Shown here: in pieces, positions 11,945-61,365 of the stretch | Layout of the letters: each line of letters starts with the position of its first letter | How positions within the stretch are numbered: the first letter of the stretch is position 1 | Origin: a virus | DNA length: 64,000 nucleotides | Reading direction: 5' to 3' (one strand) | IMG/VR virus record: IMGVR_UViG_3300045988_176782 | Coordinates: 96,001-160,000 of that record | The notes under the pieces: model-generated | Told to the model about the DNA's origin: nothing | Seen by the model: only the letters and a program-made list of their open reading frames with translations | The model's database searches: none | Made by a program: the position numbers and the translations under genes

Positions 11945-13801
11945 ATGGCTGAACACATTTTAAATACACGGATTACTCTAAAGTATGATACTTATGAAAA
12001 TTGGCAAAAATCTACTTTAGTTCTGAAAGCTGGCGAAGTTGCAATCTGCGCAGTTCCAAGTGGTGTAACTGTTGAAGGCATCGCTAAGCCACCCGCCGTT
12101 CTTCAAAAAATTGGCGATGGTGTAAATGTCTTCAAAGATTTACCCTGGCTTCAAGCCGTTGCTTCTGATGTTCATACTTGGGCAAAAGCAGCGAGCAAAC
12201 CTACCTATAAAGCAGATGAAATTACTGGCTTAGACACTTACATTACTGGTCAGATTCAAGATACTGATACTCAATATACAATTGTTAAAGGCGACAACGA
12301 TTATACATATAAGTTAATGTCTCGTGCTAAGGGCGCAGAGAATTACTCTACTGAGGTCGCTACTTTATCCATTCCCGACCCCAGCGCGGATATTAATGTT
12401 CTTAAGGCCCTAGTTGGTGATACCGCAGTCGCTACTCAAATTAGCGAGGCTATTGCTGCTTTAAAACTAAGCGATACTTATGAGCAAAAGGGTGCTGCCG
12501 CAGCTGTAAAGACTGCTTTATTAGGCGACGCCGCGGAATCTTATAATACTTTAGGTAAGTTAGAAGATGCTGTAATTGCTGCGAAGGCCTCTGCCGATGA
12601 AAAAACTACTATGGCTGCCGTAGAAGCCAAAGACTATGCCACTAAGACAGAAGCCCAAGGCTACGCTACTGCTGTAGTTGGCGCGGCTGCAGATACCGTA
12701 GATAAGGACACTGTAAAGGGTGCCAAAGCTTATGCTAAGGGCCTTAATGATGCCACCAACACTCGCGTAGAAGCTCTAGAAACTGCCATTGGCGAAGGCG
12801 GCTCTGTTGATTCTCAAATTGATGCTAAGATTGCAGAACTGGATGCGGCAGAGGTTGCTGTTGGCACAGGTGAAATTATTGAGAAGATTTCTCAAACCGA
12901 CGGTAAGATTTCTGTAAGTAAGCGCGCTTTGGCTGCAGGCGATATTCCCACAATTGAACAGAATCAAGTGAATGGCCTTGCTGGCGCTCTGGCCGCAAAA
13001 CAAGATACCTTGGCCTTCCAAAGCGACAACTATGATAAAGAAACAAATAAGGCCATCACTAAGAGCGACTTAGACACAGCTATTGCGGGCTTGACAGGCG
13101 TAACTCACTTCAAGGGCGTAGTAGAGAATCTACCTGTTTCTGCTGAAAACGGCGATATTTACATCAAGACTGATGGCACTGAGCATATTTATGTAAAGCC
13201 TGATGCCGCGACAGAAGGCCGTTTTGAAGAACTGGGCGATCAAAATTCCCATATCAAGCACGGCACTGTTGTAGATAGCGATATTGCCGCTAATGCTGCT
13301 ATTGCTCAATCCAAGATTGCCGGTCTAACCGATGCCTTAGCCGCAAAGGCTAACACTGCTGACCTTGGTACCATGGCCGTAGAAACCGCCACAAATTATA
13401 TCAAGAAAACCGAAGCTTCTGGTTATGATGATATTCTAACCACTGCTGTTGCTGGCACAACTTACGAAACCAAGAAAGATGCTACAGCTAAGCTAACCGA
13501 AGCTAAGGGCTATGTTGATACTGAGCTTGGTAAGCTAGACCTTACAGAAGTTACTGCTGGCCAAGGCACAATCATTGGAGCGATTTCTCAAACCGATGGT
13601 CTTATTAGTGTATCTACTCGTGAATTAACTGCTGATGACATCCCTGTTTTAGCACAAAGCAAAATCACTGGTTTAGAGGCCGCTTTAAATGCGAAGGCAA
13701 ATGACGCTGATTTAGCAGCAATTGCAAAGAGCGGCTCTACTGATGATTTGATTCAAGGAACAGATACCTTAGTCTTTAATTGCGGCGGTGCGAATGCGTA
13801 A
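11945..13801 (+). CDS. tail-fibre protein (Ala/Thr-rich repetitive shaft)
   Basis: ORF track; N-terminal TRITLKYDTYENW...KIGDG motif; no TAG. Confidence 0.8.
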   Translation: MAEHILNTRITLKYDTYENWQKSTLVLKAGEVAICAVPSGVTVEGIAKPPAVLQKIGDGVNVFKDLPWLQAVASDVHTWAKAASKPTYKADEITGLDTYITGQIQDTDTQYTIVKGDNDYTYKLMSRAKGAENYSTEVATLSIPDPSADINVLKALVGDTAVATQISEAIAALKLSDTYEQKGAAAAVKTALLGDAAESYNTLGKLEDAVIAAKASADEKTTMAAVEAKDYATKTEAQGYATAVVGAAADTVDKDTVKGAKAYAKGLNDATNTRVEALETAIGEGGSVDSQIDAKIAELDAAEVAVGTGEIIEKISQTDGKISVSKRALAAGDIPTIEQNQVNGLAGALAAKQDTLAFQSDNYDKETNKAITKSDLDTAIAGLTGVTHFKGVVENLPVSAENGDIYIKTDGTEHIYVKPDAATEGRFEELGDQNSHIKHGTVVDSDIAANAAIAQSKIAGLTDALAAKANTADLGTMAVETATNYIKKTEASGYDDILTTAVAGTTYETKKDATAKLTEAKGYVDTELGKLDLTEVTAGQGTIIGAISQTDGLISVSTRELTADDIPVLAQSKITGLEAALNAKANDADLAAIAKSGSTDDLIQGTDTLVFNCGGANA

Positions 13802-13808
13802 TTAATAT

Positions 13809-13840: not shown

Positions 13841-14292
13841 AAGTGAAGACTTATTGTTTATTTTTTATTATAATTATTAAAGTTTGAATTTAATAAAATT
13901 TGACTTTTATGGAAATTTAATATACACTAATTAAAAAAGAAAATGATAGACAATTGTAAATACAAATTTGATTTAAAAAAAATTTTCCCTTTGTAATTTA
14001 ATTAATTCTTTTGAGTCACTTAATAAGAAAATTAAATTCGTTAAATTAGTGAAGGAAAATATTTTAATCTTTAAAGTCTATCTTCTCCGTCAAAAACGGC
14101 AAATAAAGGATTTATAAAAAGTTTCTTTTATAGAAGAATTTATTAACAAACAAAATGTTCTATTAGAATGATTACTTATAAAATTTAATTAATTTTGGCT
14201 AGAAGAATTCTTCTTGCCGCATATTTGAGTTGAAAAAAGATACTCAAAACAAATACTCGTTCTGAAAGTGACGAACAAAAGGGGTAATTTGT

Positions 14293-15414
14293 ATGGCAGA
14301 AAAAATATTGCAAACAAGAATTTAGTTAAAATATGATACTGAAACCAACTGGAATAAAGCTACAAATTTTATTCCTAAAGCTGGCGAAATTATTTTATAT
14401 TCTGATGGCGGCGGTACTGGTATTCCTAAAATGAAAGTTGGGGATGGAAGTACAAAAGTTGGAAATTTAAAATTTCTTAAAGGAGATGGAGAATATCTAA
14501 CCTCTGTCCCTGCTGGGACTTGGACTTGGACTAATGGTACATCTGCAGGGCCTACTGCAAAATTAACTATTGACTCTAATGCAACAACTATCGGCGCAAT
14601 TCCAGCTGCTTCTTAGAGCCAAAGTGGTATAATTACAACAACTTCTCAAGTCATTTCTGGTAATAAAGCTATGTTAGGTAATTTTTCTGTTGGTAGCAGA
14701 ACTGATGCAAATTTATATACTTTAAATATTAGTCGTAAAAGTGCTTCTGATGCATCTTCTATGCTGTTTTAGGGCTATATTAATGAAACCGCAAACAATT
14801 TTCAAATGTGCATTTATCGTTATGGAATAGATAATACCGAAGCTTGGCGTTTAATTCTAAATTTTTTAAATGGAACAATTACAAGTGATTCTACTACTCC
14901 AATTACTCTTGGTTCTGCGGACATTCCTTGGACTGCTGTTTATGCTAAGAAATTTGTTGGTGGTGAAGCCACAACTTCCGTAGCAGGTTTGATGAGTGCA
15001 GAAGATAAAACTGCCCTTGATAGTTTAAGCGCTGTTTTTGGTGGCAGTTCTTCTAGTTCAGCTGGCACAAAAGGTCTTGTTCCTGCTCCTGCAAGTGGGC
15101 AACAAAATTATGTTTTACGTGGCAATGGCAGTTGGTCTCAATCTGTTGTTTCTACTACTGCGACACTAACTGCCAATGGCTGGTCTTCTTCTACACCACA
15201 CACTCAAATCATTAGTGTTAGCGGTATTACTACGAATTCTAAGGTAGTAATTGATGTTAATTTAAGCGGACAAAGTTCTGACAATATTTCTAGTATTCTT
15301 GAAAATTGGAGTAATGTTAATGATATTCAAACTAATAGTGGCGCATTAACAGCTTATTGCTATGGTGATGTTCCTACAGTTAATTTGCCAATTAATATTA
15401 TTGATATTAAGTGA
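14293..15414 (+). CDS. tail-fibre protein (3 in-frame TAG)
   Basis: ATG 14293 (MAEKILQTRI-TAG-LKYDT); TAG 14323, 14614, 14770 join ORFs 14431..14616 and 14806..15414. Confidence 0.7.
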
Positions 15415-15423
15415 GGTTAAGTT

Positions 15424-16539
15424 ATGGGACAATGTTTAATTACACGTCGTGGTGGAAAGACATCTGTAAATACTGACTTGCCTGCTTTAGATAATAATTA
15501 TCCTCAAGATGTTATAATTTGGGGAGGAGAAGCAAATGCTTCTTTTAAAGTTGTAATTAGTCGGGCCGGAACCGACACAAATTATGCCTATCAATGGTTT
15601 AAGGATGGTGCAGTAGTTGGGACTGCTGCAACATATTCAGAAACGACACCTACTGATTATGGTTCTCACACTATACAATGCGTTATAACTACCTCTTAGG
15701 GAATTATATCTTCTCGTATTGCCACTTATATTGTAAAGAATCCTAATTTCTTATATTCATACACTGGTAATATAACTACCGGTTCCAATAATACCTTCTA
15801 TCTTACTACAAGTGGCACCTTAAATATTGCTAATTATGGTAAAAATGAAGATGGAATGTTTGATATTTTTCTCCTTGGTGGCGGTGCAGGTGGAGCTGTT
15901 ACTGGCCTTGGTGGTGGCGGTTATTATACTATTACTTCAAAGAAGAAATTAGAAAAAAACACTAATTATCAGTTTATCATCGGTGCAGGCGGCGCGGCTG
16001 GTTCTTTAACTGCGGCAGGCGGTAATGGCGGCTCAACTACGACGACTATTAGCAATATTAATGAAGGAGCGGGCGGAAAAGCTGGCAACAGAGTTGACGC
16101 ATATATTAGTTGTACTTGCCAAAGTCCTAATGGCACAGCGGGTAATATTTACGAATATAGATATGGTTATAATCAAGATACAGGTGTTTATACTATTACA
16201 AATCGCAGTTCTGTAGGGAGCGGAAGTCGGACTTTAAATTTATTATACCCATTAAAACAAGTTTCTGCTTTATATAACGGCTCAGCTATTAATGTTTATC
16301 TCGCTCCAAATAAAATTGCTTATTGGTGTTATATTACAGAGCAAAAGACCATTTCTAGTAATAATGCAACTGCTGGTGCGGGCGGTTCAATAACATATAT
16401 ATTTGGAAGTAACTCTAATCTTCAGGTTAGCGGTCCAGGCGTGTTTAACAGCAATGCTGCTTTACGTTATGGCTAGGGCGGTAATAATAATATTTTAGCA
16501 GGTAAGAATGGACTAGCCGCGATTAGGTTTAGTTCATAA
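15424..16539 (+). CDS. Ig-like plus glycine-rich-domain structural protein (2 in-frame TAG)
   Basis: ORFs 15424..15699 and 15856..16476 are in one frame; TAG 15697 and 16474; stop TAA 16537. Confidence 0.7.
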
Positions 16540-16549
16540 GGAGTAAAAA

Positions 16550-17593
16550 ATGAGTTCTTGTTTATTAGTGCAAAGTCTTAAAGAAAAGAAAATCCCGCCT
16601 ACTTTATCACCTTATCAGCCTGCTAATGCCACAGCTTGGCAAGGTGATTCGGCAACTTTTTGGGTAGAAATCGCCACTCCTGGTGTCCCTGCGGAATATA
16701 CTTATCAATGGTACCGTGATGGAGCAAAATGGTCCGGAGCGACAAAAGCAAGCGTCAGTTGGAGTAGTGCATCTATTGGAGTGCATAGTATTTATTGTAT
16801 AATATCTAATGCCGCTGGAGAAGTAACAAGTCGTACAGCCACATTGACGGTAAAGAACCCCAATATGACTTACACCTACACTGGCGGCCATGAGAAGATC
16901 GACGACGGAAGCGGCAACTGGCGCATCAAGTTCAAAAGCAGCGGCACGTTGAAATTTACCAACCTTGGCAAGTGGGACGGCAAGCTGGACGTGTTCTGCG
17001 TGGGTGGAGGTTGCGCAGGTGGTAGCGGCTACTGGGACGCAGGCAACGGCTACGGTAAAGCTGGTAGTGGTGGGTACACCACAACCCAAAAAAGTGTCCA
17101 ATCAGCCGCAAATGTCTCTTATAACATTGTTATCGGTGCAGGTGGACAAAGTGCCTTTGCGTCTGGTGGAAACACTACCGCTTTTGGTGTGGCGGCTGGT
17201 GGCGGCACGAAGCTGGGAGGTGGCAGCGGCGGCGGCGCTTATGGTAACAGAGAAGTGAACAACGGCGGCTCGGACGGCGGCAATGGCGAACCGCAGAACG
17301 CCGCCAACATCGGCATTGACCATTGGGGTTCCCCCGGCAAGGGGCAGGGAACCACGACCCGCGAGTTCGGCGAATCCACCGGCACCCTCTACGCGGGCGG
17401 CGGCGGTGCTGGCGGAAACGGCTCCGCACAGGCCCATGGCGGCGCTGGCGGTGGCGGAAATGGCGCGTGGAATGGGCACCCACAAACAAGTGGCACGGAA
17501 AACACCGGTGGCGGTGGTGGTGGCATGTACTATGGCCTAACTGTCCTGGGCAAAGGTGGTAGTGGCATAGTCGTCATACGTAATCACCGATAA
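16550..17593 (+). CDS. Ig-like plus glycine-rich-domain structural protein, paralog of 15424..16539
   Basis: ORF track; the C-terminal ~240 codons are strikingly GC-rich compared with the rest of the window. Confidence 0.8.
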   Translation: MSSCLLVQSLKEKKIPPTLSPYQPANATAWQGDSATFWVEIATPGVPAEYTYQWYRDGAKWSGATKASVSWSSASIGVHSIYCIISNAAGEVTSRTATLTVKNPNMTYTYTGGHEKIDDGSGNWRIKFKSSGTLKFTNLGKWDGKLDVFCVGGGCAGGSGYWDAGNGYGKAGSGGYTTTQKSVQSAANVSYNIVIGAGGQSAFASGGNTTAFGVAAGGGTKLGGGSGGGAYGNREVNNGGSDGGNGEPQNAANIGIDHWGSPGKGQGTTTREFGESTGTLYAGGGGAGGNGSAQAHGGAGGGGNGAWNGHPQTSGTENTGGGGGGMYYGLTVLGKGGSGIVVIRNHR

Positions 17594-18410: not shown

Positions 18411-18485
18411 GGCATCTTTATTCTGAAAAGATGAATAAAGAAATTACCAATCGTCTGAAAAGACGACGATTAGGAGGTAATAATT

Positions 18486-20681
18486 ATGGCAAAACAACTT
18501 AACGCTCGTGTTCAAACTAAACGAGACACAGAACAAAATTGGAATTAGGCAATTAACTTTATTCCTAAAGATGGCGAAATTATTATTTATAAAGCTGATA
18601 CAACCGCGGAAGAGCTTCAAACTTTTTATGAAGCATATTTGGCGGAAGTTGAAGCACTAAAATTAATTACCAATACTTCCTCAACCGAATATCAAGAACA
18701 ATCTGTAAAAGTTTCTGAAGCTCTCGCCACCTATAATAATCGCTCTACACGAATTGTGCCGCGTTTTAAAGTAGGAAATGGAGAAAAATATTTAAAAGAT
18801 TTACCTTTTGTAAATGACCCATTTGTAATTAAGGAAGAAGGTAAAGGTCTTTCTGAATGTGATTATGATAAGCGTGCTCACGATATTATTGAGAACTTAA
18901 AGCAATTTGAAGATAATAATACCGGTGAAGTTTAGTATACTGACACAAAATATACTAACGGCGTCGGATTGGGGCTATTAGAGGATACAATTCCTTCAAC
19001 TTCTCAAACCCATACTTTCTACAATACTGGTATTGTTTCTATTCAAGAAAGCGCCATTAATGGTAACATTTCTGTAGCTCGTGGTAATTCCAGCACCGAT
19101 ACCACTGTAAGTGATATTGCAATTCACGGTTTAACTCAAACTGCTTATACTTTACCTGAAACTTTTGCTACAGCAAAAGCGGGCGAGCGCGCAATGACGG
19201 CATTGCAAAATGTCGCTACTCCTTTTGAACCAGTAAGCGTAAAAGATTTAACAATTCAAAAGTTGTTTGATTTAGGTTTCTTAAATACATCTTCTATTCC
19301 TGATTCTGCCGCATATTTACTTTCAGACGAAGGAAAAGCTAAAAAAATAGAAGAAATTCCAAGCTCCGAAAACGGTAGTATAAGTTATTTAATTTTTCTT
19401 GGCCTTTATCCATATGATGTCGCCGCACAAACAATGCTTCGTGGTACAGTTAATTTACAAAAAATGGATGAGGATGACAATCTAATTAACCTCTATGCGC
19501 CTGTAATTGGATTGGGCAAAATGGCTTATATTGATGAAGTTAATGCTTCCAATATTAACTTGGATACTTTGCCTATTATGACAGGTGTTAGGAAAGTTGA
19601 AACTACTGATGAAGATGGCAACATTACCGAAACAACTTATCTTTCTGGGCATAAAGGTTTGGTTCCGACTCCAACAGAAAACGATTATGGCAAAGTTCTA
19701 TTTAGCGATGGCTCTTGGCGACCAATTACAGATATTGCGATTAACATTGGTGATATTCCTTCTGGTTTAGCAACCGATAATGAAGGTAAAATTTATAATA
19801 ATGGTATATTAAATTTAAGTAGTGAAGAAAATATTATAAACTTTACTCAACTTCAATTAGATGAAGCTACTCAAAAATATCAATTAGTTTCCTATCAACT
19901 TGAAATTCCCGCAGCGGTATCTTGGACTTCAACACTTACGAGTGGAGAACAAATTGGCACTTTAACTATTAATAACGCTGAAAATATTTTATATGCTCCG
20001 GTTGCATCCGACAGAGTGGCAAAAGCAGGAGATACAATGACCGGACGATTAATTTCTCCTGCGATAGAAATTCGCAAAGACGCTTGGCCATAGCTTCTAT
20101 TAAGCAATGCTTCAGGTGGTCCTCGTGGAATGATGTATGTAGCAACCAGTGATGGTAGTGTGGGTAATTTATATCTTAGAGCATATTCTTCTGACACAGA
20201 ATATTCTCAAGCTTATTTAACAACTTCTGGAACTTTTTCCGCACCAAGTGTTGAAGGCGCAGTCTTTAACGATTACGCAGAATACCGTGCTTTAAAAGAC
20301 CCAATTGAATCCTACGAACCAGGTTATTGTATGACCTGCAATAGAGATGGAAAACTTTTCCGCACTTCTTCTCGTATGCAACATTGTGAAGGCATTACCT
20401 CTGATACTTTTGGTTTCTCTATTGGCCGCACAGATGAAGCTACTGTTCCTCTTGCAGTTGCAGGTCGCGTACTAGTATATACTTCTGAAGACCCCTCTAC
20501 TTACTATACTGGTCAAGCTGTTTGTGCTAGTAGGGGTGGCCGCGTTTCTAAAATGACAGATTCTGAAATTGCTCAAAATCCTGACCGTATTGTTGGAATA
20601 GTAAGTGAAGTTCCTACATATGAAACTTGGGGAACAAATAATGTTAAAGTTAATGGTAGAATTTGGATTACAGTAAAATAA
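18486..20681 (+). CDS. tail spike/appendage protein with C-terminal autoproteolytic-chaperone-like domain (3 in-frame TAG)
   Basis: ATG 18486; TAG 18546, 18933, 20091 join ORFs 18639.., 18969.., 20130..20681; C-terminus is shared with 20731..22188 (NDYAEYR...GIVSEVP...WG...GRIWI). Confidence 0.7.
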
Positions 20682-20730
20682 ATTTGCCTATAAACAAAAA
20701 TTATTGTAAAATAATTTTGGAGGATGAAAT

Positions 20731-22188
20731 ATGAAACAAGTAAATATTATTGTAAAGTCTTCTGTGCAAGAATAGGAAAAATTTATTGGAACTTATCCAG
20801 AAAAAAACCTATTAACAATTGATGCAGAAGGACAAATTATTCAAGATGATGTAATTACTCACGGTATAAAAATTGGTGATGGCGAAACCAAATGGGATGA
20901 TTTACCTTTCTTGAAGTTGCCGCCTGATATAGCGAATGATTGGAAAGTTTTAGCAGAAAGCGCGACCAATGGCCAACTTGTGACCTTACCTGATTTGAAT
21001 TTTGCATATTTATTAATTGACGCAGAAAAACTAGATAACGCACAGTATACTGAAATTGTAAATCAAATTGCTTCTCGTAATATTGGTTTATATTTAGCCG
21101 CGGCAGAATCAGAAAAATCATTATACCCTGATGGAAGTCAAATTCAAAATTATGCTCTCACAATCAACACAGACGAAGATAAACCATTCATAACTCAAGA
21201 CCCAAATGGTGCAACTGCCACAAATAGTATAGTAGATAGGTTTATTTTTAATACTTCAAATGAATCCAAGTATAATAAAATTGAAGTGAAATTAAAAGAT
21301 AGTGAAGCGCAAGAAAAAATTGAACAGCTTAAAGCTACGGTAGATGATAAATTTACTACTTTTTCTGAGCAAACTAAAAAAGATATTGAACAAGTAAAAA
21401 AAGATATTAAAGAATCCACCTATATTTTTGGTAGCAATAACATCCCCGAAGGAACCACAAGTGGCCTAATTCCTTTTCCTGAAGTAGAAAAACGAACAAA
21501 AGATTACTTCCTTTCTGGCGCAGGGACTTGGGAACAAATCATTCTTACCGCTGATAAAGTAAAATACACCACTCCGACTGGTAGCCAAACATATGTTAAA
21601 GATGTGTTAGATGATTTATTGAGCGGTGCTAGTCTAAGTTTTGCTCAAGGTAGCGCGACAGACCGTCAGGTATTTATTGTTGGCGCGACACAAGAAGGTT
21701 TGAATAATAAAAAAACTACATTAAAATATAGTCCAAGTGTGTATCTTGACTGTAAGGATAATGTACTATATGGCGGCGCTTGGAATGATATTGCTGAATT
21801 TAGGGAGTCTTTTGATTCTTATGTGGCAGGAAACTGTGTATATGAAACTGCACGAGGCAAATTGATGATTTCTGATAAGCGTATGATTCCAAATAGTTAT
21901 ATTGTATCTGACACTTATGGTTATGCTTTGGGTGAGAAAGATATTGATACAGTTCCTGTTACTATTGCCGGTAGAGTTTTGGCTTATTATTTAGAAGATA
22001 AAAATGAACTAAAAATTGGTGATGCTGTATGCAGCGGTCCAAATGGTGCAGTTTGTAAGATGAAGAAATGGGAAAAAATTTTACATCCTGAATGTATTAT
22101 TGGCTATGTAAGTGAAATTCCTCAATATGAGATTTGGGGCCAACATAATACTTCTGTGCGCAATCGTATTTGGATTAAGGTGAAGTAA
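20731..22188 (+). CDS. tail spike/appendage protein, paralogous C-terminal domain (1 in-frame TAG)
   Basis: ATG 20731 after GGAGGA SD; TAG 20773; continues into ORF 20911..22188. Confidence 0.7.
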
Positions 22189-22189
22189 T

Positions 22190-22882
22190 ATGGTAGAAAA
22201 AATTACAGCTTCTTGGTTTAATAGAATTATTGATGCCATTAAGCGTTTAAAGAATTTAGGATTTGCTTTTTCTACAGAAGGAGTCCCAAATAAAATTACC
22301 ATAAATTCAGATGGCACAACAGGAAAACTTTATACTCCTTCTGACTTTAGTGCGATTAATGCAATAATTCAACGAATGTCAACAGATGAATACTTACAGC
22401 AAACAAATAACGCTTCTTATCCTGCACAACAAATTTATTATAATACTGTTTCTGTCGGTAAGCGTGGGCAAAGACCGTTATTAGATTGGAAAAATCAATT
22501 AGATAGAACGGTTGATTCTTGGCAATATATTACTTGCTATCACGGAACTGCAAAAACGAATGGTGTAAATAGCGTTGCGTGCCAGCATGGGGCGAATAGT
22601 AATGGTGATAATACGAATGGTTATTGCCAAAGAGGATTAACTCCTTGTGACCATGGAACTAATCATGTTTGTAATACTAATTATAGTAGTCAAGGTAATA
22701 AAGGTTGGCATACTAAAACTTGCTCCAACGCCACCGTAAAAGATGGAAAAGGCAGCAACACCAATGGTATGTATTCCCCTAACGGCACAAATAGTAACGG
22801 TACTTTTGCTAACACTTGTCCTCACGGAGATTGTCAGCAAGGTATCGATATTAACATTCGTTATAAAACAACACAAGGATAA
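22190..22882 (+). CDS. Cys/His-repeat protein (candidate radical-SAM substrate)
   Basis: ORF track; starts 2 nt after the previous stop; C-terminal 110 aa carry 8 Cys in C-x-[HRQ]-G repeats (CYHG, CQHG, CQRG, CDHG, CPHG, CQQG) within N/S/T/G-rich spacers. Confidence 0.75.
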   Translation: MVEKITASWFNRIIDAIKRLKNLGFAFSTEGVPNKITINSDGTTGKLYTPSDFSAINAIIQRMSTDEYLQQTNNASYPAQQIYYNTVSVGKRGQRPLLDWKNQLDRTVDSWQYITCYHGTAKTNGVNSVACQHGANSNGDNTNGYCQRGLTPCDHGTNHVCNTNYSSQGNKGWHTKTCSNATVKDGKGSNTNGMYSPNGTNSNGTFANTCPHGDCQQGIDINIRYKTTQG

Positions 22883-22891
22883 AAGAAAAGA

Positions 22892-24232
22892 ATGAATAAA
22901 AATTTAAAGCATACTGTCTTAACTTTATTTCCTTCCGCAGTTTGTAATTTAAACTGTACATACTGCAACATTAGTAAAAATAAGGCTCTAATTGAAATTG
23001 ATAAAGAATTGAAAGATTTCTTTAACGACCCAGATTATATAATGCAACGAGTGCATAAGTATTTTGAACCTTGTGCTCTTACCACATTAGAAACCTGGGG
23101 CGGCGAACCTTTTCTCCATATGGATAGAATATATAAGGTATTGCCGCGACTTGTGGAAGATTATCCATATTTACAGAATTTCTTCAGTTCTACAAATTTT
23201 TCTTTTTCTACTTGGATAGAACAATTTTTTGGCCTGATGCACCAATTTAAGCAATGGCCAGACCGTCAATTTAATTACAAACTCCAAATTTCTTGTGATG
23301 GCCCAACTGAATTAAACGATTTGGGGCGCGGAAAAGGCACAACTTTAAAGTGCTTGGAAAATTATGCCAGATTGGTTGAGTCTTTAGAAAAGAGATTGCC
23401 TGCTAATATCAATCTTTCTATTGTTCCTAAGCCTACTTTAAATTTAGAAACAGTTCGTTTATTAAATACAAAAGAAAAAATTATAGAATATTACCAATTC
23501 TTTGAAGATTGTTTTATTAATTTAGTTAATAAGTTGGAATTTAATAATGTTCAAGCTTACACAAACACTCCGAATATGGGCGTTCCTTGTCCAGCAACAA
23601 AAGAGGACGGGTTATATTTTGCTAAGTTTGCGAAAAATTGTGCAGAAGTAAGCAAACACGCAAAGAAATACTTCAAATATTATACTAATGTGCGACCTTT
23701 TTCCATATATCAAAAACAAACGAAAAACCTAACTTTCTATCAATCCTGTATTGGTTGTGGTATGGGATATTCTAATATTGGACTTTTGCCGCAAGACAAA
23801 ATTTCAGTATGTAATGAAGGATTTGTTCAAACTGTAAAACAATATAATGAACTACGCTCTCAAGAGCAAGAAAGCGGCACAATTGAAAAGAAAACTCGTC
23901 AATCAAAAAATCAACATCATCTATGCTATAGTGATGATGAATATGAGAAGTTTGAAGAACAAATGTGTAATTTCTGTTATACTGCAAATACATCAGTTTT
24001 GGTTGGTTTATGCAATCAAATCACTCTTTTGGCTTTAAGCGGCCAGATTGATAAACAATATATACAGCAATCTAATGCTCTTCACGCCGCACAAGTTTTA
24101 GCAGGAGAATACTTTTGTTTAAAAGATAATTATGACATTACAGGATCTTTTTCTCTTGTTCCTGTAGGGTTAATTCGTTTATTATTAAATGGTGCTTTGC
24201 CATATTTGGAGAATAATGATGAAAACATTTAA
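22892..24232 (+). CDS. radical SAM enzyme with C-terminal Cys clusters (SPASM-like)
   Basis: ORF track; N-terminal CNLNCTYC (CxxxCxxC); later clusters CIGCG...C and CNFC...C. Confidence 0.85.
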   Translation: MNKNLKHTVLTLFPSAVCNLNCTYCNISKNKALIEIDKELKDFFNDPDYIMQRVHKYFEPCALTTLETWGGEPFLHMDRIYKVLPRLVEDYPYLQNFFSSTNFSFSTWIEQFFGLMHQFKQWPDRQFNYKLQISCDGPTELNDLGRGKGTTLKCLENYARLVESLEKRLPANINLSIVPKPTLNLETVRLLNTKEKIIEYYQFFEDCFINLVNKLEFNNVQAYTNTPNMGVPCPATKEDGLYFAKFAKNCAEVSKHAKKYFKYYTNVRPFSIYQKQTKNLTFYQSCIGCGMGYSNIGLLPQDKISVCNEGFVQTVKQYNELRSQEQESGTIEKKTRQSKNQHHLCYSDDEYEKFEEQMCNFCYTANTSVLVGLCNQITLLALSGQIDKQYIQQSNALHAAQVLAGEYFCLKDNYDITGSFSLVPVGLIRLLLNGALPYLENNDENI

Positions 24233-25616
24233 AGAAGAAAATAACGATTTTTTAAAGTTTTTGTTAAATGAAAGGTTTTTTAAGAATTGGAAGAAACCTT
24301 CAAATAATGGCAAAGACTTACATTCTATTTCTCAAATTGAGTTTTATATTACTAACCAGTGTAATCAACATTGTGAGTATTGTTATTTATATAATAATTA
24401 CAATATCTATCCAAAAGAAGCCACAGAAGCAAAAACAATTCTTAATAATCTAACTATGGTTTTTAATTGGCTTATTGAAAATAATTATTATATTCAAACT
24501 ATTGATTATTTTTCTGGCGAAATTTGGCATACTCAATTAGGATTGGACATTTTGGATTTGACCTTTAAAGCTTTACAAAATGGTTTGCAAGTTAAACGAA
24601 TAATGATTCCTACAAATGGCTCATTTATTATGAATGATGCGGTTAAACAGAAAATTCAAAACTATATCAATGCTTTCCAAGACCTTGGGACAAGTCTTCA
24701 ACTGTCTTTTTCCATTGATGGTAAAGTAATTGACAACTTGAATCGTCCACGTAATGACAGTTCTAAATTATATACTGACGAATTTTATAATAAAGTATTT
24801 GATTTTGCTTATCATAATGATTTTTTCTTCCATCCAATGGTTGCTGCTTATTCTATTGAAAAATGGAAAGAAAACTTCTATTGGTGGAAAGAAATGTGCC
24901 AAAAATATAATTGGTCAACTCATTATCGTGTAATGATGTTGGAAGTGCGCAATGATGACTGGACGGAAGAAAAGATTAAAACTTATTGTGATTTTCTTAC
25001 ATTTTTAATGGATGATTTTAGAGAAGAAAATCCTCAATATGCTTCAATAGAAAATTTTTCTGAATTTATCTTTGGTAAATATATAACACTAGAAGAAAAC
25101 TATACTTACCTTCCTTGGGTACTTGCGCTAACTTCCGATGTTTTTTCTTGTACAATACCGTGTCAATTATGTATTCGTTTAGGCGATTTAGCTTTGGCAC
25201 CTTGCCATAGAACAGCATACGATAAATTTATCTATGGCTATTTTCAAACTCAAAATGGTCGCATCGTAGACATTAAGGAAAATAATTTTTATCTTGCTGA
25301 ACGATTTCTTTATATGAGCAATATTTACGCTACTCCTCATTGCGATACTTGTGTGTATAATAAGTTCTGTATAAAGGGATGCGCAGGTTCACAGTATGAA
25401 AATACTGGAGATTTATTCTTCCCTATTCCCTCTGTATGCAAATTAGAAAAAGCAAAAATTAATACAGCAATTAACTATTATCAAAAGAATGGCATAATTG
25501 ATTACTACAAAAATCTTCCTATTGACCATTTTATGTATTCAAGTGCCTCAAGACTTTTAGGAGAAATTTATGCTATTCAAAAAGAAACCGAAACTTATTC
25601 AATCTCTAACTCTTGA
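24216..25616 (+). CDS. radical SAM/SPASM enzyme
   Basis: ORF track frame 24189..; GGAG SD before ATG 24216; CNQHCEYC (CxxxCxxC); C-terminal CDTCVYNKFCIKGCAG is SPASM-like. Confidence 0.85.
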   Translation: MMKTFKEENNDFLKFLLNERFFKNWKKPSNNGKDLHSISQIEFYITNQCNQHCEYCYLYNNYNIYPKEATEAKTILNNLTMVFNWLIENNYYIQTIDYFSGEIWHTQLGLDILDLTFKALQNGLQVKRIMIPTNGSFIMNDAVKQKIQNYINAFQDLGTSLQLSFSIDGKVIDNLNRPRNDSSKLYTDEFYNKVFDFAYHNDFFFHPMVAAYSIEKWKENFYWWKEMCQKYNWSTHYRVMMLEVRNDDWTEEKIKTYCDFLTFLMDDFREENPQYASIENFSEFIFGKYITLEENYTYLPWVLALTSDVFSCTIPCQLCIRLGDLALAPCHRTAYDKFIYGYFQTQNGRIVDIKENNFYLAERFLYMSNIYATPHCDTCVYNKFCIKGCAGSQYENTGDLFFPIPSVCKLEKAKINTAINYYQKNGIIDYYKNLPIDHFMYSSASRLLGEIYAIQKETETYSISNS

Positions 25617-25809
25617 ACAATCTTGTCAAGGACAATTAACTACTACGGCGGAAAAAGTAGATATATATAGTGATGATACTGTTGTTCGTTATTATACATA
25701 TTCTATTCGTCATTTTGATAATATTGATGGCATTACGCCGCTTAATTATGTAGGACAAAAAATTTATAATCAGTTAACTGGGTATAAAGAGGAATTGACG
25801 AATTCCTAA
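25570..25809 (+). CDS. hypothetical protein
   Basis: ORF track; overlaps the end of the rSAM gene. Confidence 0.45.
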   Translation: MLFKKKPKLIQSLTLEQSCQGQLTTTAEKVDIYSDDTVVRYYTYSIRHFDNIDGITPLNYVGQKIYNQLTGYKEELTNS

Positions 25810-25970
25810 AATCAAAATAGATGAGACGATATTATAGCAGTTAAGTTTATTATCCAATTCACGGGAAAGCGCTTAACAGTCGCAGAAGAAAAAATAAAAC
25901 TTCTCTTCTAGTGTCGGCTCAATTGATTTATCTACGGCGATTTTAACAGGTGGTAATTCCATTACGAATT

Positions 25971-26001
25971 AAGAGGACAATTTTGTCCTCTTATTTTTTT
26001 T
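25971..26001 (+). terminator. intrinsic terminator
   Basis: AAGAGGACAA / TTGTCCTCTT hairpin then T8. Confidence 0.85.
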
Positions 26002-26054
26002 ACAAAAAAGAAAATTTCGTGTATAATACAATTAACAAAGAAAGGAGCAAAGAT

Positions 26055-36719: not shown

Positions 36720-37853
36720 ATGAAGCGTTTTCAGGCAGTAATAGATTGCGGTTTTGGTGACGCAGGAAAAGGCTTAGTTTCTCGTTGGCTTGCAAAGCAA
36801 GCATTTGAGCGTAAAGAAAAAACTTTAACTGTATTTTTTAGTGGCGGTTGCCAACGCGCCCATACCACTATTGAAGGCGTTTTTCATACTTTACCTGCTG
36901 GGTTATTTTTTGACAGTGATATTCTATATAGCGAAATGTTTGTCATTGACCCTATCGCTATTTATTTAGAATATGAAAGTTGGAAGCAAAGTTTCGGGCC
37001 ATTTATTGAACCAAAACTTTATGTAAGCCCACATTGTCGTGTGGTTACTCCTTTTGATGTCTGGAATAATCGTCTAAAAGAAACTCGTCGTGGCGCGCAA
37101 AAACATGGCAGTTGCGGTATGGGCATTTTTGAAACCGTATTTAGAGATAAGAGTTTATTTGAATTAAAAGCCAGAGACCTTTCCAACCCTTGGAAACTTT
37201 GGGAACAACTAAAGAAAATTGAAGAACTTTATAGCAATTCTTGCAGTGATATGGTCTATAATGCCCACAACTTTATGAAGGCCGCGGAATGGTTTACTAA
37301 AAATGTAGAGCAATTTGAAACATATGAAGTATTAAAAAAATATGATACCATTATTTTTGAAGGAAGCCAAGGTTTGTTGCTTTCTCAAACTAATGTGGAT
37401 TTCTTTCCATACTTAACTCCTGCCTCTACCGGTGTTGATAATATTGAACATTGGTTCAATTTAGGCGCGGCGGAAGAAAAAGAAATCTACTATGTTTCTC
37501 GCTCTTATATGACACGACACGGTGCTGGGCCTTTTCCAACAGAATGTAAGAAGAAAGATATTAATCCCACAATTGTTGATTCTACTAATATTCCTAATAA
37601 ATGGCAAAATAATTTGCGTTTTGGATACTATGATGTAAAACTTATTGGTGATGCTATTGTTAAGGATACTTGTAGAATTACGAACAATAAGGTAAAATTT
37701 AATATGGTATTTACGCAACTTAACTATACTAATGGCAAAGTAAGATGCGGCAAGAATGACGATTTGGATATTAATAATGATTTATTTTTCTTTCTCAATT
37801 TTGACCATCTATATGGTTCTTGGGATAAAGAAAATGTAGAAAGGATTATGTAA
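36720..37853 (+). CDS. divergent adenylosuccinate-synthetase (PurA) family protein
   Basis: ORF track; GFGDAGKG and GGCQRAHT line up with PurA GDEGKGK and GGHNAGHT (recalled). Confidence 0.7.
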   Translation: MKRFQAVIDCGFGDAGKGLVSRWLAKQAFERKEKTLTVFFSGGCQRAHTTIEGVFHTLPAGLFFDSDILYSEMFVIDPIAIYLEYESWKQSFGPFIEPKLYVSPHCRVVTPFDVWNNRLKETRRGAQKHGSCGMGIFETVFRDKSLFELKARDLSNPWKLWEQLKKIEELYSNSCSDMVYNAHNFMKAAEWFTKNVEQFETYEVLKKYDTIIFEGSQGLLLSQTNVDFFPYLTPASTGVDNIEHWFNLGAAEEKEIYYVSRSYMTRHGAGPFPTECKKKDINPTIVDSTNIPNKWQNNLRFGYYDVKLIGDAIVKDTCRITNNKVKFNMVFTQLNYTNGKVRCGKNDDLDINNDLFFFLNFDHLYGSWDKENVERIM

Positions 37854-46741: not shown

Positions 46742-46831
46742 TGGCCCTTAGTTGAATGGTGACAACAGCTGACTCTAAATCAGTAAGTGGGGTTGACCCC
46801 GCAGGTCTTGGTTCGAATCCAAGAGGGCTAA
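46742..46831 (+). tRNA. suppressor tRNA, anticodon CTA (reads UAG)
   Basis: Hand fold: acceptor TGGCCCT/AGGGCTA (U1:A72, G2:U71), D arm GTTG-AATGGTGA-CAAC, anticodon arm GCTGA-CTCTAAA-TCAGT, 22-nt variable arm with GGGG/CCCC stem, T arm CTTGG-TTCGAAT-CCAAG; no encoded CCA. Confidence 0.8.
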
Positions 46832-47815: not shown

Positions 47816-47888
47816 AGTTGTTATGGTGTGAAAATCCAACCCATCAAGCCTCTTAATAATGCTCAAACCGATGGGAGTTTCATAGCTT

Positions 47889-56170: not shown

Positions 56171-56245
56171 TGCTCAATAGCTTAACGGTAGAGCAGCGAT
56201 TTCATAAGTCGTTAGATATAGGTTCAAATCCTATTTGAGCAACCA
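56171..56245 (+). tRNA. tRNA with CAT anticodon (Met or Ile2)
   Basis: Acceptor TGCTCAA/TTGAGCA, anticodon loop TTCATAA, T arm ATAGG-TTCAAAT-CCTAT, encoded CCA. Confidence 0.8.
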
Positions 56246-56372
56246 AGCGCTACACAGATTCCCACTAAACTACCACTGGCGTCTCAGACCCAATAGGAGA
56301 GCGGCGATATGTAGCTTGCGGAAGCGCTATATAAGAAGCGAAGTAAGTGGTGGGCGGTTTACCGCCCGATAT

Positions 56373-56446
56373 GCGGGTGTAGCTCAATGGTAGAATTCTA
56401 GCCTTCCAAGCTGGTTACGTGGGTTCGATTCCCATTACTCGCTCCA
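56373..56446 (+). tRNA. tRNA-Gly (TCC)
   Basis: Anticodon arm CTAGC-CTTCCAA-GCTGG, T arm GTGGG-TTCGATT-CCCAT, encoded CCA. Confidence 0.8.
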
Positions 56447-56709
56447 ATTGATTTCAAGTAGAACAAGTTAGCTTCTTGTGAAAGAAATCTGCGCTATGAC
56501 TACGGAAGACAGCGAGTCAGGGTTTGTAGAATTTTCCATACAATTCTACCGTGAACCAGTTCAATTACTGTTGCTCTGCTCTGCGACTGCGTGAAGGTCG
56601 GTTAAAAAGGTGAAGCGGGTTATTACTGCTTCCAAGAGGAGTAAGCGGGAGATGGGCGCAAAGTCTGCGGTGAGTCTAAATCCGTGCTAGCAAAATAGAC
56701 CAATATTAT
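56447..56709 (+). ncRNA. structured spacer RNA (~260 nt), unassigned
   Basis: No ORF; richer in G+C than surrounding DNA; hairpins incl. GTAGAATT/AATTCTAC (8 bp). Confidence 0.4.
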
Positions 56710-56784
56710 GGCTCCGTAGTCAAGCGGTTAAGACGCTGGGTTTTCATCCCAGAGACGCGAGTTCGACTCTCGCCGGAGCTACCA
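56710..56784 (+). tRNA. tRNA-Glu (TTC)
   Basis: Acceptor GGCTCCG/CGGAGCT, anticodon arm CTGGG-TTTTCAT-CCCAG, encoded CCA. Confidence 0.9.
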
Positions 56785-56789
56785 TAGTA

Positions 56790-56888
56790 AAGACACAGGT
56801 TAAACAGCAATACTTATAGTGGTTAATAAAATTTTTGTTGTATAAAATTTTTAATGGGTTCAAATCCCACAAAAGAACCCTGCGTCTT
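56790..56888 (+). repeat. hairpin-family element d (contains a T-arm-like GGGTTCAAATCCC)
   Basis: AAGAC ... GTCTT closing stem; box AAACAGCAATA; followed by GTTTTTT. Confidence 0.5.
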
Positions 56889-56895
56889 GTTTTTT

Positions 56896-56986
56896 GGAAA
56901 GGTGGCTGAGTTGGTTTAAAGTGACAGATTGCTAATCTGTTGAGGGATTTTCCCCTCCGGAGGTTCAAATCCTCTCCTTTCCGCCA
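56896..56986 (+). tRNA. tRNA-Ser (GCT), class II
   Basis: Acceptor GGAAAGG/CCTTTCC, anticodon arm ACAGA-TTGCTAA-TCTGT, long variable arm, encoded CCA. Confidence 0.9.
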
Positions 56987-56989
56987 TAT

Positions 56990-57068
56990 GTGCGCGAGTA
57001 ACCGAATTGGCATAGGTACTGGTCTAAGAAGCCAGGTTTTATGAGTTTAAGTCTCACCTTGCACACCA
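56990..57068 (+). tRNA. tRNA-like gene, apparent anticodon AAG, class-I body
   Basis: Acceptor GTGCGCG/CTTGCAC (one mismatch), anticodon arm CTGGT-CTAAGAA-GCCAG, atypical T loop TTTAAGT, A73, encoded CCA. Confidence 0.5.
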
Positions 57069-57071
57069 TTT

Positions 57072-57130
57072 AAGATACTAATAACGATTATTATTTTCTT
57101 TACAGTTTTTAAAGAACAAGAATGTGTCTT
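57072..57130 (+). repeat. hairpin-family element g
   Basis: AAGATAC ... GTGTCTT closing stem (one G:U). Confidence 0.45.
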
Positions 57131-57136
57131 GATTAT

Positions 57137-57211
57137 GGGGCAGTGACGCAATGGTAGCGTGTTAGCTTTGCAAGCTGAAAGTTGAGGGTTCAAATCCCTT
57201 CTGCTCCACCA
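57137..57211 (+). tRNA. tRNA-Ala (TGC)
   Basis: Acceptor GGGGCAG/CTGCTCC with G3:U70, anticodon arm TTAGC-TTTGCAA-GCTGA, A73, encoded CCA. Confidence 0.9.
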
Positions 57212-57331
57212 GACGTGCCAGTTTCTCCGATGGCCGTATAACTTAGAAATAAGTGAAGCAGAAAGTAGCTATTTTGCATCGGAAAGCAAGTCTCCTTATT
57301 CCTTGCCATACATAAAAGAATAAGGACGCGT

Positions 57332-57408
57332 GCGCTGATAGCCCAATTGGCAGAGGCAATAGACTTAGGATCTATTCAGTGAGAGTTCAAATCTCTCTTG
57401 GCGTACCA
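57332..57408 (+). tRNA. tRNA with anticodon TAG (reads CUA/CUG Leu codons) on a class-I body
   Basis: Anticodon arm ATAGA-CTTAGGA-TCTAT (perfect), 5-nt variable loop TCAGT, T arm GAGAG-TTCAAAT-CTCTC, A73, encoded CCA. Confidence 0.7.
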
Positions 57409-57411
57409 TTT

Positions 57412-57475
57412 AAGACAGTTACAGCAAATCCTCAAAAGATGCGATTGTTAAAATTACGTTATTATTTACTGTCTT
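57412..57475 (+). repeat. hairpin-family element e
   Basis: AAGACAGT ... ACTGTCTT 8-bp closing stem; box TTACAGCAAAT. Confidence 0.6.
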
Positions 57476-57482
57476 GCTATTT

Positions 57483-57546
57483 CGGGATATAGTGCGATGT
57501 GCTGATAACATGCAAGTCGCGGATTCAAATCCCGCCCCTGTAACCA
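57483..57546 (+). other. tRNA-like 3' fragment / long hairpin ending in CCA
   Basis: T-arm-like GCGGA-TTCAAAT-CCCGC and ...CCCTGTA-A-CCA, but no matching 5' acceptor strand; alternative long hairpin CGGGAT...ATCCCG with CTGATAA loop. Confidence 0.3.
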
Positions 57547-57547
57547 T

Positions 57548-57623
57548 CGGGGAATACGTCAATTGGCAGACGGCTTGCTTTGGGAGCAAGCAGCTCTCAG
57601 TTCAAATCTGAGTTCTCCGACCA
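57548..57623 (+). tRNA. tRNA-Pro (TGG)
   Basis: Acceptor CGGGGAA/TTCTCCG, anticodon arm CTTGC-TTTGGGA-GCAAG, encoded CCA. Confidence 0.9.
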
Positions 57624-57676
57624 GAGGAATTTATAATCCTTTTTCATAACAAATGGGAGAATTTCTCCCATCTCCT

Positions 57677-57747
57677 TGGCCGCAAGTAGAGAAATGTTAT
57701 CTCACCGTTTTAACGGAGTAGGCGGTTCAATTCCGCCCTCGGCCATT
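57677..57747 (+). other. tRNA-shaped RNA with a mini-hairpin in place of the anticodon arm
   Basis: D arm GAGA-AATGTTA-TCTC and T arm GGCGG-TTCAATT-CCGCC are clear; acceptor pairs 5 of 7; the anticodon position is CCGT-TTTA-ACGG (4-nt loop). Confidence 0.35.
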
Positions 57748-57876
57748 AGTCGCCCTGGCACAGGGAGAAATGTGTTGCTCGGTAGGAGGGCATCCGCGGA
57801 GAATATACTATCCTACACAAAACAAAATGGGACTGATGCAGGTCCCACTTATAAGGGGAAGTTCCCCTTTTAATAT

Positions 57877-57962
57877 GGAGGAGTGGCGGAATGACGAGAC
57901 GCAGTTGACTCAAAATCAACCACGAAGAAACACTGAGAGTTCAAATCTCTTCTCCTCTACCA
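57877..57962 (+). tRNA. tRNA-Leu (CAA), class II
   Basis: Acceptor GGAGGAG/CTCCTCT, anticodon arm GTTGA-CTCAAAA-TCAAC, long variable arm, A73, encoded CCA. Confidence 0.9.
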
Positions 57963-59969: not shown

Positions 59970-59974
59970 TATTT

Positions 59975-61304: not shown

Positions 61305-61365
61305 ATGTCTATAAAAGATAAGCAATAGCTCTATTGCTTCCAAAATGAAAAGGAGAAAAGAAAAC

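Follow-up and report, generated by a model that had tools for sequence, protein, structure and literature searches.

In bacteria, radical-SAM enzymes are well known to mature ribosomal peptides; cases in which they mature whole proteins, such as QhpC and HxsA, are only beginning to appear. The closest known architecture to the locus described here is, by analogy, that of the bacterial antiphage system HXS (HxsD-HxsB-HxsC-HxsA), which consists of two radical-SAM (rSAM) enzymes, a small protein and a repeat effector of ~214 aa (Li et al., Nat Commun 2026; PMC13128918). The function of HXS depends on maturation, HxsA carries a signal peptide and a peptidoglycan-binding domain, and 99.7% of the examples occur in Pseudomonadota (PMC13128918). 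The triceptide (three-residue cyclophane) synthases ChlB, HaaB, HtkB and GrrM/OscB are rSAM/SPASM enzymes that act iteratively on aromatic/His-X-X motifs of Gly/Asn-rich repeat precursors (PMC11499958).

The window, i.e., the whole stretch of 64,000 nucleotides that was analysed, comes from a large gut phage and contains a four-gene cassette, A-B-C-D. The genes were real according to an ORF check, and no published description of the cassette was found in the literature. It is probably a phage-borne, RiPP-like cassette that matures a repeat protein of ~230 aa made on the ribosome. Its features were as follows.

22190–22534, plus strand: A, N-terminal leader-like domain (residues 1–115, up to the boundary Cys116), conserved across clades by alignment and HMM matches
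22535–22849, plus strand: A, low-complexity core (residues 116–220), predicted to be disordered by AF2 (pLDDT 21–34)
22850–22882, plus strand: A, conserved C-terminal tail IDINIRYKTTQG and stop codon, 98.5% identity among close relatives
22892–24232, plus strand: B, radical-SAM enzyme with a twitch-like auxiliary region, 446 aa, from family matches, AF2 model and Foldseek
24219–25616, plus strand: C, radical-SAM/SPASM enzyme, 465 aa from 24219 (ORF open from 24189), from motifs and PDB sequence match
25570–25809, plus strand: D, small accessory protein, 79 aa, from a family HMM match

The genes were tightly spaced or overlapping. A (22190–22882, 230 aa) started one base past the upstream stop (TAA, 22186–22188), as the original prediction had placed it; the gap between A and B was 9 nt, and B/C and C/D overlapped. 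The start of C was most likely 24219, within the end of B, since the resulting length of 465 aa matched that of a 98%-identical homologue (P0017). No curated family model among those scanned was reached at its cut-off by any of the four proteins.

As in HXS, the cassette has two adjacent rSAM genes (one SPASM), a small partner and, instead of a short peptide, a putative repeat-protein substrate of ~200 aa, and the short-period His/Ser-type repeats of HXS resemble the repeats of A-like proteins. The gene order was different (D-B-C-A in HXS, A-B-C-D here). The cassette also differed in its carrier, a phage with related contigs in Firmicutes bins, and in A, which had a novel N-domain, no signal peptide and hypervariable cores. 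Against the HXS families (TIGR03979/03978/03977/03976), only C gave a match, to HxsB at 22.8 bits versus 370, and the HxsC, HxsD and HxsA models did not match B, D-family members or A-like proteins. PADLOC returned weak viperin-core matches only. The arrangement had been presented as one with no known described example, which was not upheld: HXS (PMC13128918) and the CXXX-repeat rSAM system are described relatives in kind.

The core of A was rich in N, G, T and S, with Gly at a recurring spacing of 5. Six C-x-[HRQ]-G units were located at residues 116, 131, 146, 153, 210 and 215, a count beyond chance that was reached in 0 of 20,000 shuffles of the core. Eight units had been claimed; the number eight applied to the Cys residues overall, two of which (161 and 178) lay outside the units. 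The His units in the window protein were H-G-[TAD], not H-x-S. Pairwise identity among close relatives was 93% in the N-domain and 60% in the hypervariable stretch (residues 150–180). Cys116, 131, 210 and 215 were invariant down to 50% identity, and relatives within the window lineage contained up to about 20 Cys. The AF2 model of A had a mean pLDDT of 38.7 and no fold, with two helices at moderate pLDDT in the N-domain. Neither A nor 20 diverse A-like N-domains matched PHROG, Pfam or PDB.

Common to the A-like proteins were the N-domain of ~100 aa and the boundary Cys, followed by a low-complexity core of hypervariable sequence and by a conserved tail, which had the motif [VI][VI]D[IV]xN throughout the main clade. 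The Cys-rich core was specific to the window lineage. Other clades had N/S/G pentads, CXXX repeats (L010, a member of the A family), or aromatic or F/Y/H-rich cores, and some relatives had His-x-Ser-type repeats, for instance L003 with its HSSG runs. The Cys/His unit was hence not what the family conserves: cores were almost Cys-free in L007 and L003, for example, though the enzymes were 40–46% identical. H-G-x, W-S-Q and Y/F-x-N motifs occurred in many A-like cores. Aromatic/His-X-X motifs were likewise present in many, yet many repeats had neither an aromatic residue nor His.

The cluster motif of B, CNLNCTYC, occupied residues 18–25 (C18-x3-C22-x2-C25), and that of C, CNQHCEYC, was accompanied by CDTCVYNKFCIKGCAG; both motifs were present as predicted. 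The three cluster Cys were invariant in the 25-sequence alignment of each family, of which the C family comprised ~540 clusters. SPASM-type Cys clusters had been assigned to both enzymes, and the assignment was retained for C but not for B. With the SPASM pattern defined as CX9-15GX4C, a gap, CX2CX5CX3C, a gap and a final C, seven Cys of C were invariant in 25 homologues (C309, C327, C373, C376, C382, C386 and C405, query numbering), so that SPASM membership followed from the motif, the TIGR04085 HMM giving 20.5 versus a cut-off of 27. In the B family, only four extra Cys were conserved (C154, C289, C307 and C409), including a twitch-like CGxG...C element, and no conserved CX2CX5CX3C block was found in the alignment; B is thus outside canonical SPASM (TIGR04085). 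The AF2 model of B had an rSAM fold (pLDDT 85.4), and its closest structural neighbours in Foldseek were CteB (the best, TM 0.46–0.50), TigE and EpeE. The best PDB sequence match was the ChlB rSAM domain for B (E = 1.5e-4, generic rSAM core only) and CteB (5wgg) for C (E = 8e-7).

Both enzymes belonged to the radical SAM superfamily (PF04055) by their motifs, with Pfam scores of 26.5 and 17.8 bits against a gathering score of 29.5. The rSAM/SPASM HMM search that the original prediction had proposed gave NCBIfam matches that were almost all peptide maturases (among them PapB, SCIFF, QhpD, HxsB and GrrM); the exceptions were a weak viperin match in the core rSAM region of C and scattered matches to a few housekeeping rSAM families. 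These matches support a place for B and C among the peptide-modifying rSAM/SPASM enzymes rather than the housekeeping families. The scores were far under the curated cut-offs (at most 31 bits versus 180 or more), and the chemistry is therefore not readable from homology.

The best full-length NCBIfam model for each enzyme was PapB (NF047865), which aligned over nearly its whole length at 27.3 bits with B and 23.7 bits with C (cut-off 340). The SCIFF/CteB maturase model (TIGR03974) matched C at 28 bits (cut-off 425), in the SPASM region only. Membership of B or C in either family was rejected on these scores. The PapB model and CteB matches and the repeated Cys of the window substrate nevertheless resemble the thioether maturases (PapB ranthipeptide, CteB/SCIFF and sactipeptide synthases). 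The differences were scores about tenfold or more under the cut-offs, the lack of a detected RRE, a 230-aa precursor with a folded-looking N-domain of 100 aa, and homologous cassettes serving almost Cys-free cores. No Pfam, NCBIfam or PHROG match pointed to an RRE in B, C or D, and there was no room for one before the cluster motif (B residue 18, C residue ~48).

The triceptide synthases were similar in that ChlB provided the best PDB match of B and in the motifs of many A-like cores. Membership (XyeB TIGR04496, GrrM TIGR04261, YhhB NF041707) was rejected at 19.6 bits or less versus cut-offs of 310–450. The likeness to proteusins (NHLP-leader, rSAM epimerases) was in a structured leader of ~80–100 aa, in a core that is long and of low complexity, and in rSAM modification that is iterative, and the epimerase EpeE was among the structural neighbours of B. 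NHLP/Nif11 similarity was not found in Pfam for 20 diverse N-domains or in NCBIfam for three A-like proteins, and no other proteusin tailoring genes accompanied the cassette. No leader protease, exporter or transporter was present in the A-B-C-D unit.

D had been overlooked by the original prediction. It is the short form of a family of ~100–130 aa whose genes lie 3' of C across the main clade. A family HMM from which the window sequence had been left out recognised it (E = 7.8e-10), and D had no match in any library searched.

The precursor-plus-maturase arrangement was well supported by the survey of related genomes, in which the repeat protein was linked to the enzymes as anticipated. B was directly upstream of C in 69/69 related loci with enough upstream DNA (IMG/VR and GTDB, 21–97% identity), and an A-like protein, recognised by HMM through the shared N-domain, adjoined about 60 of 67 B-C pairs. 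The enzymes formed hundreds of clusters at 90% identity. The locus corresponds to the general RiPP definition, with a precursor gene beside modifying enzymes, a conserved leader and a variable core. Gene linkage by itself is no proof that A is the substrate.

In the mechanism proposed here, the conserved N-domain of A, ~100 aa up to the boundary Cys, would be the recognition (leader-like) element. B and C would use 5'-deoxyadenosyl radical chemistry to introduce several modifications in the unstructured, hypervariable core, and D may assist one of the enzymes as a partner or chaperone, in the way that HxsD assists HxsC. In the Cys-rich window lineage, the most likely products would be Cys-derived thioether cross-links of the sactionine or ranthionine type. 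Because relatives have almost Cys-free cores, thioether chemistry cannot be assumed for the whole family. Cys-poor relatives would have to employ Cys-independent chemistry, which might be epimerisation or the cross-linking of His or aromatic residues through C-C, C-N or C-O bonds. The diversity of cores between clades (N/S/G pentads, CXXX, F/Y/H-rich) makes a single shared reaction hard to name.

The cassette was an accessory module. A sibling phage had an additional A-B-C-D copy among tRNA/RNA-repair genes, with its insertion point at window position ~61.3 kb, and in other phages the cassette adjoined genes for YcaO, tRNAs or RNA repair. Its presence/absence polymorphism and its multiple copies in a genome, both typical of accessory conflict genes, are consistent with a matured A that is released or directed to the envelope as an effector, for example in superinfection exclusion or in inter-phage or inter-bacterial competition; HxsA, which blocks phage DNA entry, would be the analogue. 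The four-part architecture shared with HXS (PMC13128918), the hypervariable cores and the His-x-Ser-type repeats of some relatives also point in this direction. However, A was devoid of a signal peptide, the bins with related contigs were Firmicutes, which are without a periplasm, and the HXS and PADLOC searches gave nothing beyond the weak matches above. Moreover, in-frame TAG codons, which were found in the A-like genes of many phages, sometimes with TAG-free B and C, suggest late and not early expression. An effector role is accordingly possible but doubtful.

The surroundings of the cassette in the window were relevant to a second destination of A.

18459–20681, plus strand: fibre/appendage-like gene 1, about 731 aa, with TAG at 18471, 18546, 18933 and 20091 as sense
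20728–22188, plus strand: fibre/appendage-like gene 2, 485 aa, one in-frame TAG, stop one base before A
25970–25993, plus strand: terminator-like hairpin, 10-bp stem and T-run, from a consensus scan
25999–26027, plus strand: promoter-like site, best in the region, from a consensus scan
46742–46831, plus strand: suppressor tRNA, anticodon CTA (reads TAG)
58665–60517, plus strand: second rSAM and repeat-protein pair, with a CXXX-repeat-type maturase at 58665–59969 (six in-frame TAG) and its target at about 59957–60517

The phage reads TAG as sense, and the CTA tRNA provides the genetic-code context for the upstream genes as well as for related cassettes. The two upstream genes, described earlier as tail spikes, are therefore longer fibre/appendage-like genes. 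The C-terminal ~130 aa of gene 1 were homologous to the C-terminus of gene 2, and both genes shared an N-terminal motif with fibre-like ORFs, that of gene 1 being common to the ORF at 14272–15414. Against the phi29 pre-neck appendage protein gp12 (6qz9), the C-terminal domain of gene 2 gave a weak alignment (E = 0.026). This match and the shared N-terminal motif give a spike identity weak backing only.

In the window lineage, A followed the two fibre/appendage-like genes at stop+2, an arrangement kept down to 52% B identity, and the cassette closed the fibre operon. The consensus scan found no terminator-like site between the fibre gene and A and a strong one after D; positions 25970–26027 are the probable end of a fibre-plus-cassette transcription unit. 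The cassette would be made late in infection, as the last part of this operon in the window lineage. Window A had no in-frame TAG, so late expression rests on the operon context and on relatives, in which in-frame TAG in many A-like genes fits such timing. The matured A could be part of the virion, as a fibre, a whisker or an accessory for receptor binding, and radical cross-links would then harden its repeats against gut proteases. Fibre C-terminal-domain homologues lay within 7 kb of cassettes in several other clades (L007, L026, and the L038 and L050 groups), and conserved ends with a hypervariable middle resemble host-range proteins. This assignment to a virion module held for gene context in the window lineage but not elsewhere, where the accessory cassette stood beside YcaO, tRNA or RNA-repair genes; L003, L004 and L006 had YcaO and no structural neighbours. 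In addition, A matched no structural family in PHROG, Pfam or PDB, AF2 gave no fold, and gene context was its sole tie to the fibre genes. A place in the virion is hence rather unlikely for A. It is more speculative still, and improbable, that the rSAM pair cross-links a hypervariable repeat protein at the end of the fibre operon and that the protease-resistant product joins the virion host-interaction apparatus of large gut phages.

An action of B and C on a nucleotide, tRNA or other metabolite (viperin-like or housekeeping), with A as an unrelated low-complexity neighbour, is very improbable, since the weak viperin matches of C (NF038283, 31 bits; PADLOC pVip, E = 2e-7) covered the generic rSAM core only, C has a full SPASM domain that viperins do not have, and the A-B-C linkage persisted across clades with wholly different A cores and neighbours, abundant as tRNA and RNA-repair genes are in these genomes.

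The second pair in the window resembled the CXXX-repeat system (TIGR04115/04114/04116/04117), whose chemistry is, to our knowledge, also uncharacterised. Its maturase scored 330 bits with TIGR04115 (cut-off 350), and the pair gave a TIGR04117 match at E = 5e-5. The target had an N-domain of ~110 aa, weakly resembling the A family, and about 18 C-x-x-x repeats. Like the cassette, the CXXX-repeat system places a repeat-rich Cys target beside an rSAM/SPASM maturase; unlike the cassette, it has a single maturase and not a pair. B and C were rejected as CXXX-repeat maturases, as neither matched TIGR04115.

With the maturation of A by B and C as the preferred reading, the maturation logic found here is spread widely, as an accessory module, among large gut phages that recode TAG. 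None of the four families (two of enzymes, one of precursors and one of helpers) has curated annotation. The divergent cores, combined with enzymes that are 40–50% identical between clades, make the family naturally suited to studies of rSAM chemistry that tolerates different substrates. If cross-linking in the virion is true, A would be the first virion protein to be matured by radical-SAM enzymes and would offer a new route to host-range diversification. Whether in the virion, at the envelope or released, the product would form a new class of modified proteins that phages make in the human gut, and, as seen from the window, one phage can hold two or three such rSAM-repeat systems.

The interval was occupied by four tightly packed plus-strand genes encoding a putative substrate (A), two radical-SAM enzymes (B and C) and a small accessory protein (D):

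22190-22882, + strand: A, 230 aa, starting one base past the TAA of the preceding gene
22892-24232, + strand: B, radical-SAM enzyme of 446 aa containing CNLNCTYC
open from 24189, ending at 25616, + strand: C, containing CNQHCEYC and a full SPASM block
25570-25809, + strand: D, 79 aa, overlapping the end of C

The start of C was most likely at 24219, as in its 98%-identical homologue P0017, which would give a protein of 465 aa. The last ~115 residues of A were rich in N, G, T and S and contained eight cysteines, six of which lay within C-x-[HRQ]-G units. Six such units were reached in 0/20000 shuffles of the core. The original prediction stands with corrections: the C-terminus of A was built of repeat units, although six were counted rather than the eight reported, and A, B and C were recovered together with a fourth gene, D, which had been overlooked. 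Both enzymes had been described as SPASM-type. Across 25 aligned homologues, the canonical seven-Cys SPASM motif was found in C only, whereas B kept only four further cysteines, including a twitch-like CGxG...C element.

The enzymes were compared with the HMMs of radical-SAM/SPASM subfamilies. None of the curated NCBIfam models was reached by B or C (best scores no higher than 31 bits, cut-offs of at least 180), and almost all of these sub-threshold matches were peptide-modifying radical-SAM/SPASM maturases. The PapB model aligned along its whole length with each of the two enzymes. The best PDB sequence match of C was CteB, and that of B was the triceptide synthase ChlB, in the radical-SAM core only. 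The predicted structure of B (pLDDT 85.4) was nearest to CteB, TigE and the epimerase EpeE, with a TM of about 0.5. Hence, B and C belong among the peptide or protein modifiers, and their chemistry is not readable from homology. PADLOC returned only weak viperin-core matches. The possibility that B and C were recent paralogues was rejected, because their profile-profile match was confined to the radical-SAM core.

The linkage of the genes was evaluated in 70 fetched loci (designated L), comprising IMG/VR viral contigs and GTDB bins of Oscillospiraceae, Lachnospiraceae, Clostridium, Roseburia and Bacilli. Both enzyme families were large and uncharacterised, with 380 clusters at 90% identity for B and 541 for C (E<=1e-3); their members were mostly 40-50% identical and came from contigs as long as 361 kb. 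B was directly upstream of C in every locus having upstream DNA, and the gene preceding B almost always encoded an A-like protein. According to an HMM of the A N-domain, whose detections included clades left out of model building, an A-like protein adjoined ~60 of 67 B-C pairs. A D-family protein lay 3' of C throughout the main clade, and a D HMM built without the window sequence matched the window D (E=7.8e-10). The N-domain search with the window subfamily retrieved only five real relatives from the representative library. Nothing was found in 50,697 GenBank phages by blastn with the DNA or by tblastn with B and the C-terminal domain of the upstream fibre-like genes. The cassette proteins had no informative names in the source databases. 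No description of an A-B-C-D cassette was found in the literature on phage-encoded radical-SAM or RiPP systems, with subscription journals mostly outside coverage.

Four elements were common to all members of the A family: an N-domain of ~100 aa, a nearly invariant boundary cysteine at its end (usually in [IV][KR]CRN), a low-complexity core ranging from about 60 to 330 residues and a short conserved tail, which took the form [VI][VI]D[IV]xN in the main clade. Among close relatives, identity was 93% in the N-domain, 98.5% in the tail and 80% in the core, and only 60% over residues 150-180. The cores were highly divergent between clades. Cores made of x-S-N-G-x pentads had almost no cysteine in L007 and L003 and some in L018; the L022 core was composed of W-S-Q-G nonamers, and those of the L038 and L050 groups were rich in F, Y, H, N and S. 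A glycine spacing of 5 was common and not universal; a strict pentapeptide repeat was rejected as the family hallmark, since the spacing was 9 or 3 in some cores. Relatives within the window lineage had up to about 20 cysteines. Because the cores differ between clades and some are nearly Cys-free, Cys-richness is a trait of the window lineage and not of the family. The A-family protein of L010 (4273-5610) contained about 20 in-frame TAG codons, and its core mixed CXXX repeats with HTHGTNSNACNNSSHSQGG-type decamers. This core would link the A family to the CXXX-repeat targets. The N-domain had no relative in Pfam or the PDB. The AF2 model of A consisted of two moderately confident N-terminal helices with the rest disordered, and with a mean pLDDT of 38.7 it could not support a fold search.

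The genetic code and the genes upstream of A were explored with the following features:

46742-46831: suppressor tRNA with anticodon CTA, 90 nt, long variable arm
18459-20681, + strand: fibre/appendage-like gene 1, about 731 aa with TAG read as sense
20728-22188: fibre/appendage-like gene 2, 485 aa with TAG read as sense

In-frame TAG occurred in many plus-strand genes of the window, including 18459-20681, 14272-15414 and 58665-59969. TAG recoding by the phage is evident from the suppressor tRNA and the abundance of in-frame TAG codons, and standard ORF calls consequently split several genes. In L026, a TAG was aligned with Gln in the repeat units. A full-length ROOL RNA (48109-48684; Rfam RF03087, 296 bits) and an abiF RNA motif (47840-47876; RF03085, 50 bits) were located just downstream of the suppressor tRNA.

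The two upstream genes, originally called tail-spike genes, had a ~130-aa C-terminal domain in common, which gave a weak alignment (E=0.026) to the autochaperone region of the phi29 pre-neck appendage protein. Annotation as PHROG tail proteins failed, with no tail match at E<=0.001. Hence, "fibre/appendage-like" appears a reasonable but weakly evidenced label. A consensus scan gave no terminator-like site between these genes and A. About 160 nt past D lay a hairpin of 10 bp with a T-run, followed by the best promoter-like match of the region (consensus scans only). Two adjoining Gly_rich_2 (PF21722) proteins with Ig-like N-terminal parts were encoded within the fibre block (15421-17593), and the same Gly_rich_2 genes, together with CBM_5_12 genes, were present upstream of the cassette in L073 and L074.

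In the window lineage, the cassette followed the two fibre-like genes with A at stop+2, an arrangement kept down to 52% B identity. In several other clades, homologues of the fibre C-terminal domain occurred no more than 7 kb from the cassette. The neighbours in other phages were a YcaO of ~600 aa and small genes of unknown function. This YcaO was found beside the cassette in about nine distinct loci (L004 8671-10470, L006 2805-4607, L003 ~12063-13802, L010, L019, L026, L039, L063). It was of the E. coli type and passed the generic YcaO kinase-domain model. Its nearest model was that of the YcaO accessory factor in ribosomal protein S12 methylthiolation rather than a SagD-type cyclodehydratase. 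With this limited number of loci and no YcaO in the 64-kb window, an obligatory partnership was rejected.

The sibling phage IMGVR_UViG_3300045988_173030 (L029), whose flanking DNA was about 78-95% identical to the window, carried a ~4.1-kb insertion (L029 5019-9151) at window position ~61.3 kb. The insertion held a second A-B-C-D cassette, absent from the window, whose enzymes shared 44% (B) and 52% (C) identity with their window counterparts. Its site contained tRNA and RNA-repair genes and adjoined the CXXX system and a tRNA-Thr gene. Two cassettes were also present on other contigs.

Recoding has been associated with late genes. In-frame TAG was present in many A-like genes, in some cases without TAG in their B and C (L004, L011, L012, L016, L019 and L056). 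The TAG codons in A-like genes, together with this association, suggest that A is produced late in infection. The loci with TAG in A alone hint that translation of the enzymes is possible ahead of the code switch, and that of the substrate only afterwards.

Other genes of note in the window (36720-37853, 49515-50843, 61345-62853 and 55229-57962, listed jointly) included a PurZ/PurA-like adenylosuccinate-synthetase homologue (PHROG 1211), an RNA ligase (PHROG 968), a Ro/TROVE-like RNA-binding protein (PHROG 850) and an array of about 12 tRNA genes. These genes are suggestive of possible DNA-base modification and of an RNA-repair module.

By architecture, the bacterial antiphage system HXS is the closest described system to A-B-C-D. 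HXS consists of HxsD, HxsB, HxsC and the 214-aa effector HxsA with His-x-Ser repeats; HxsA is matured by the two radical-SAM enzymes, of which HxsC has HxsD as its partner, and prevents the entry of phage DNA (PMC13128918). The cassette was not a member of the HXS family by any model, its gene order, carrier and predicted hosts all differed, and A, unlike HxsA, had no signal peptide. A separate radical-SAM and repeat-target pair was encoded in the window:

58665-59969, + strand: CXXX-type maturase, TIGR04115 330 bits, just below the cut-off of 350, six in-frame TAG
within 58665-60517, 3' of the maturase: CXXX target protein, ~110-aa N-domain and about 18 C-x-x-x repeats

This pair was conserved in the sibling phages L029, L071 and L072, and the N-domain of its target resembled that of A at borderline significance only.

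Conserved linkage and the peptide-modifier class of the enzymes give good support to the reading of A-B-C as one precursor with two maturases. Cys-centred chemistry is plausible for the window lineage only, and the gene context leads to the hypothesis that the putative substrate A is a virion protein. The cassette would represent radical-SAM maturation of a ribosomal repeat protein, which is known in kind, by new families of enzyme, substrate and helper that are borne by phages.
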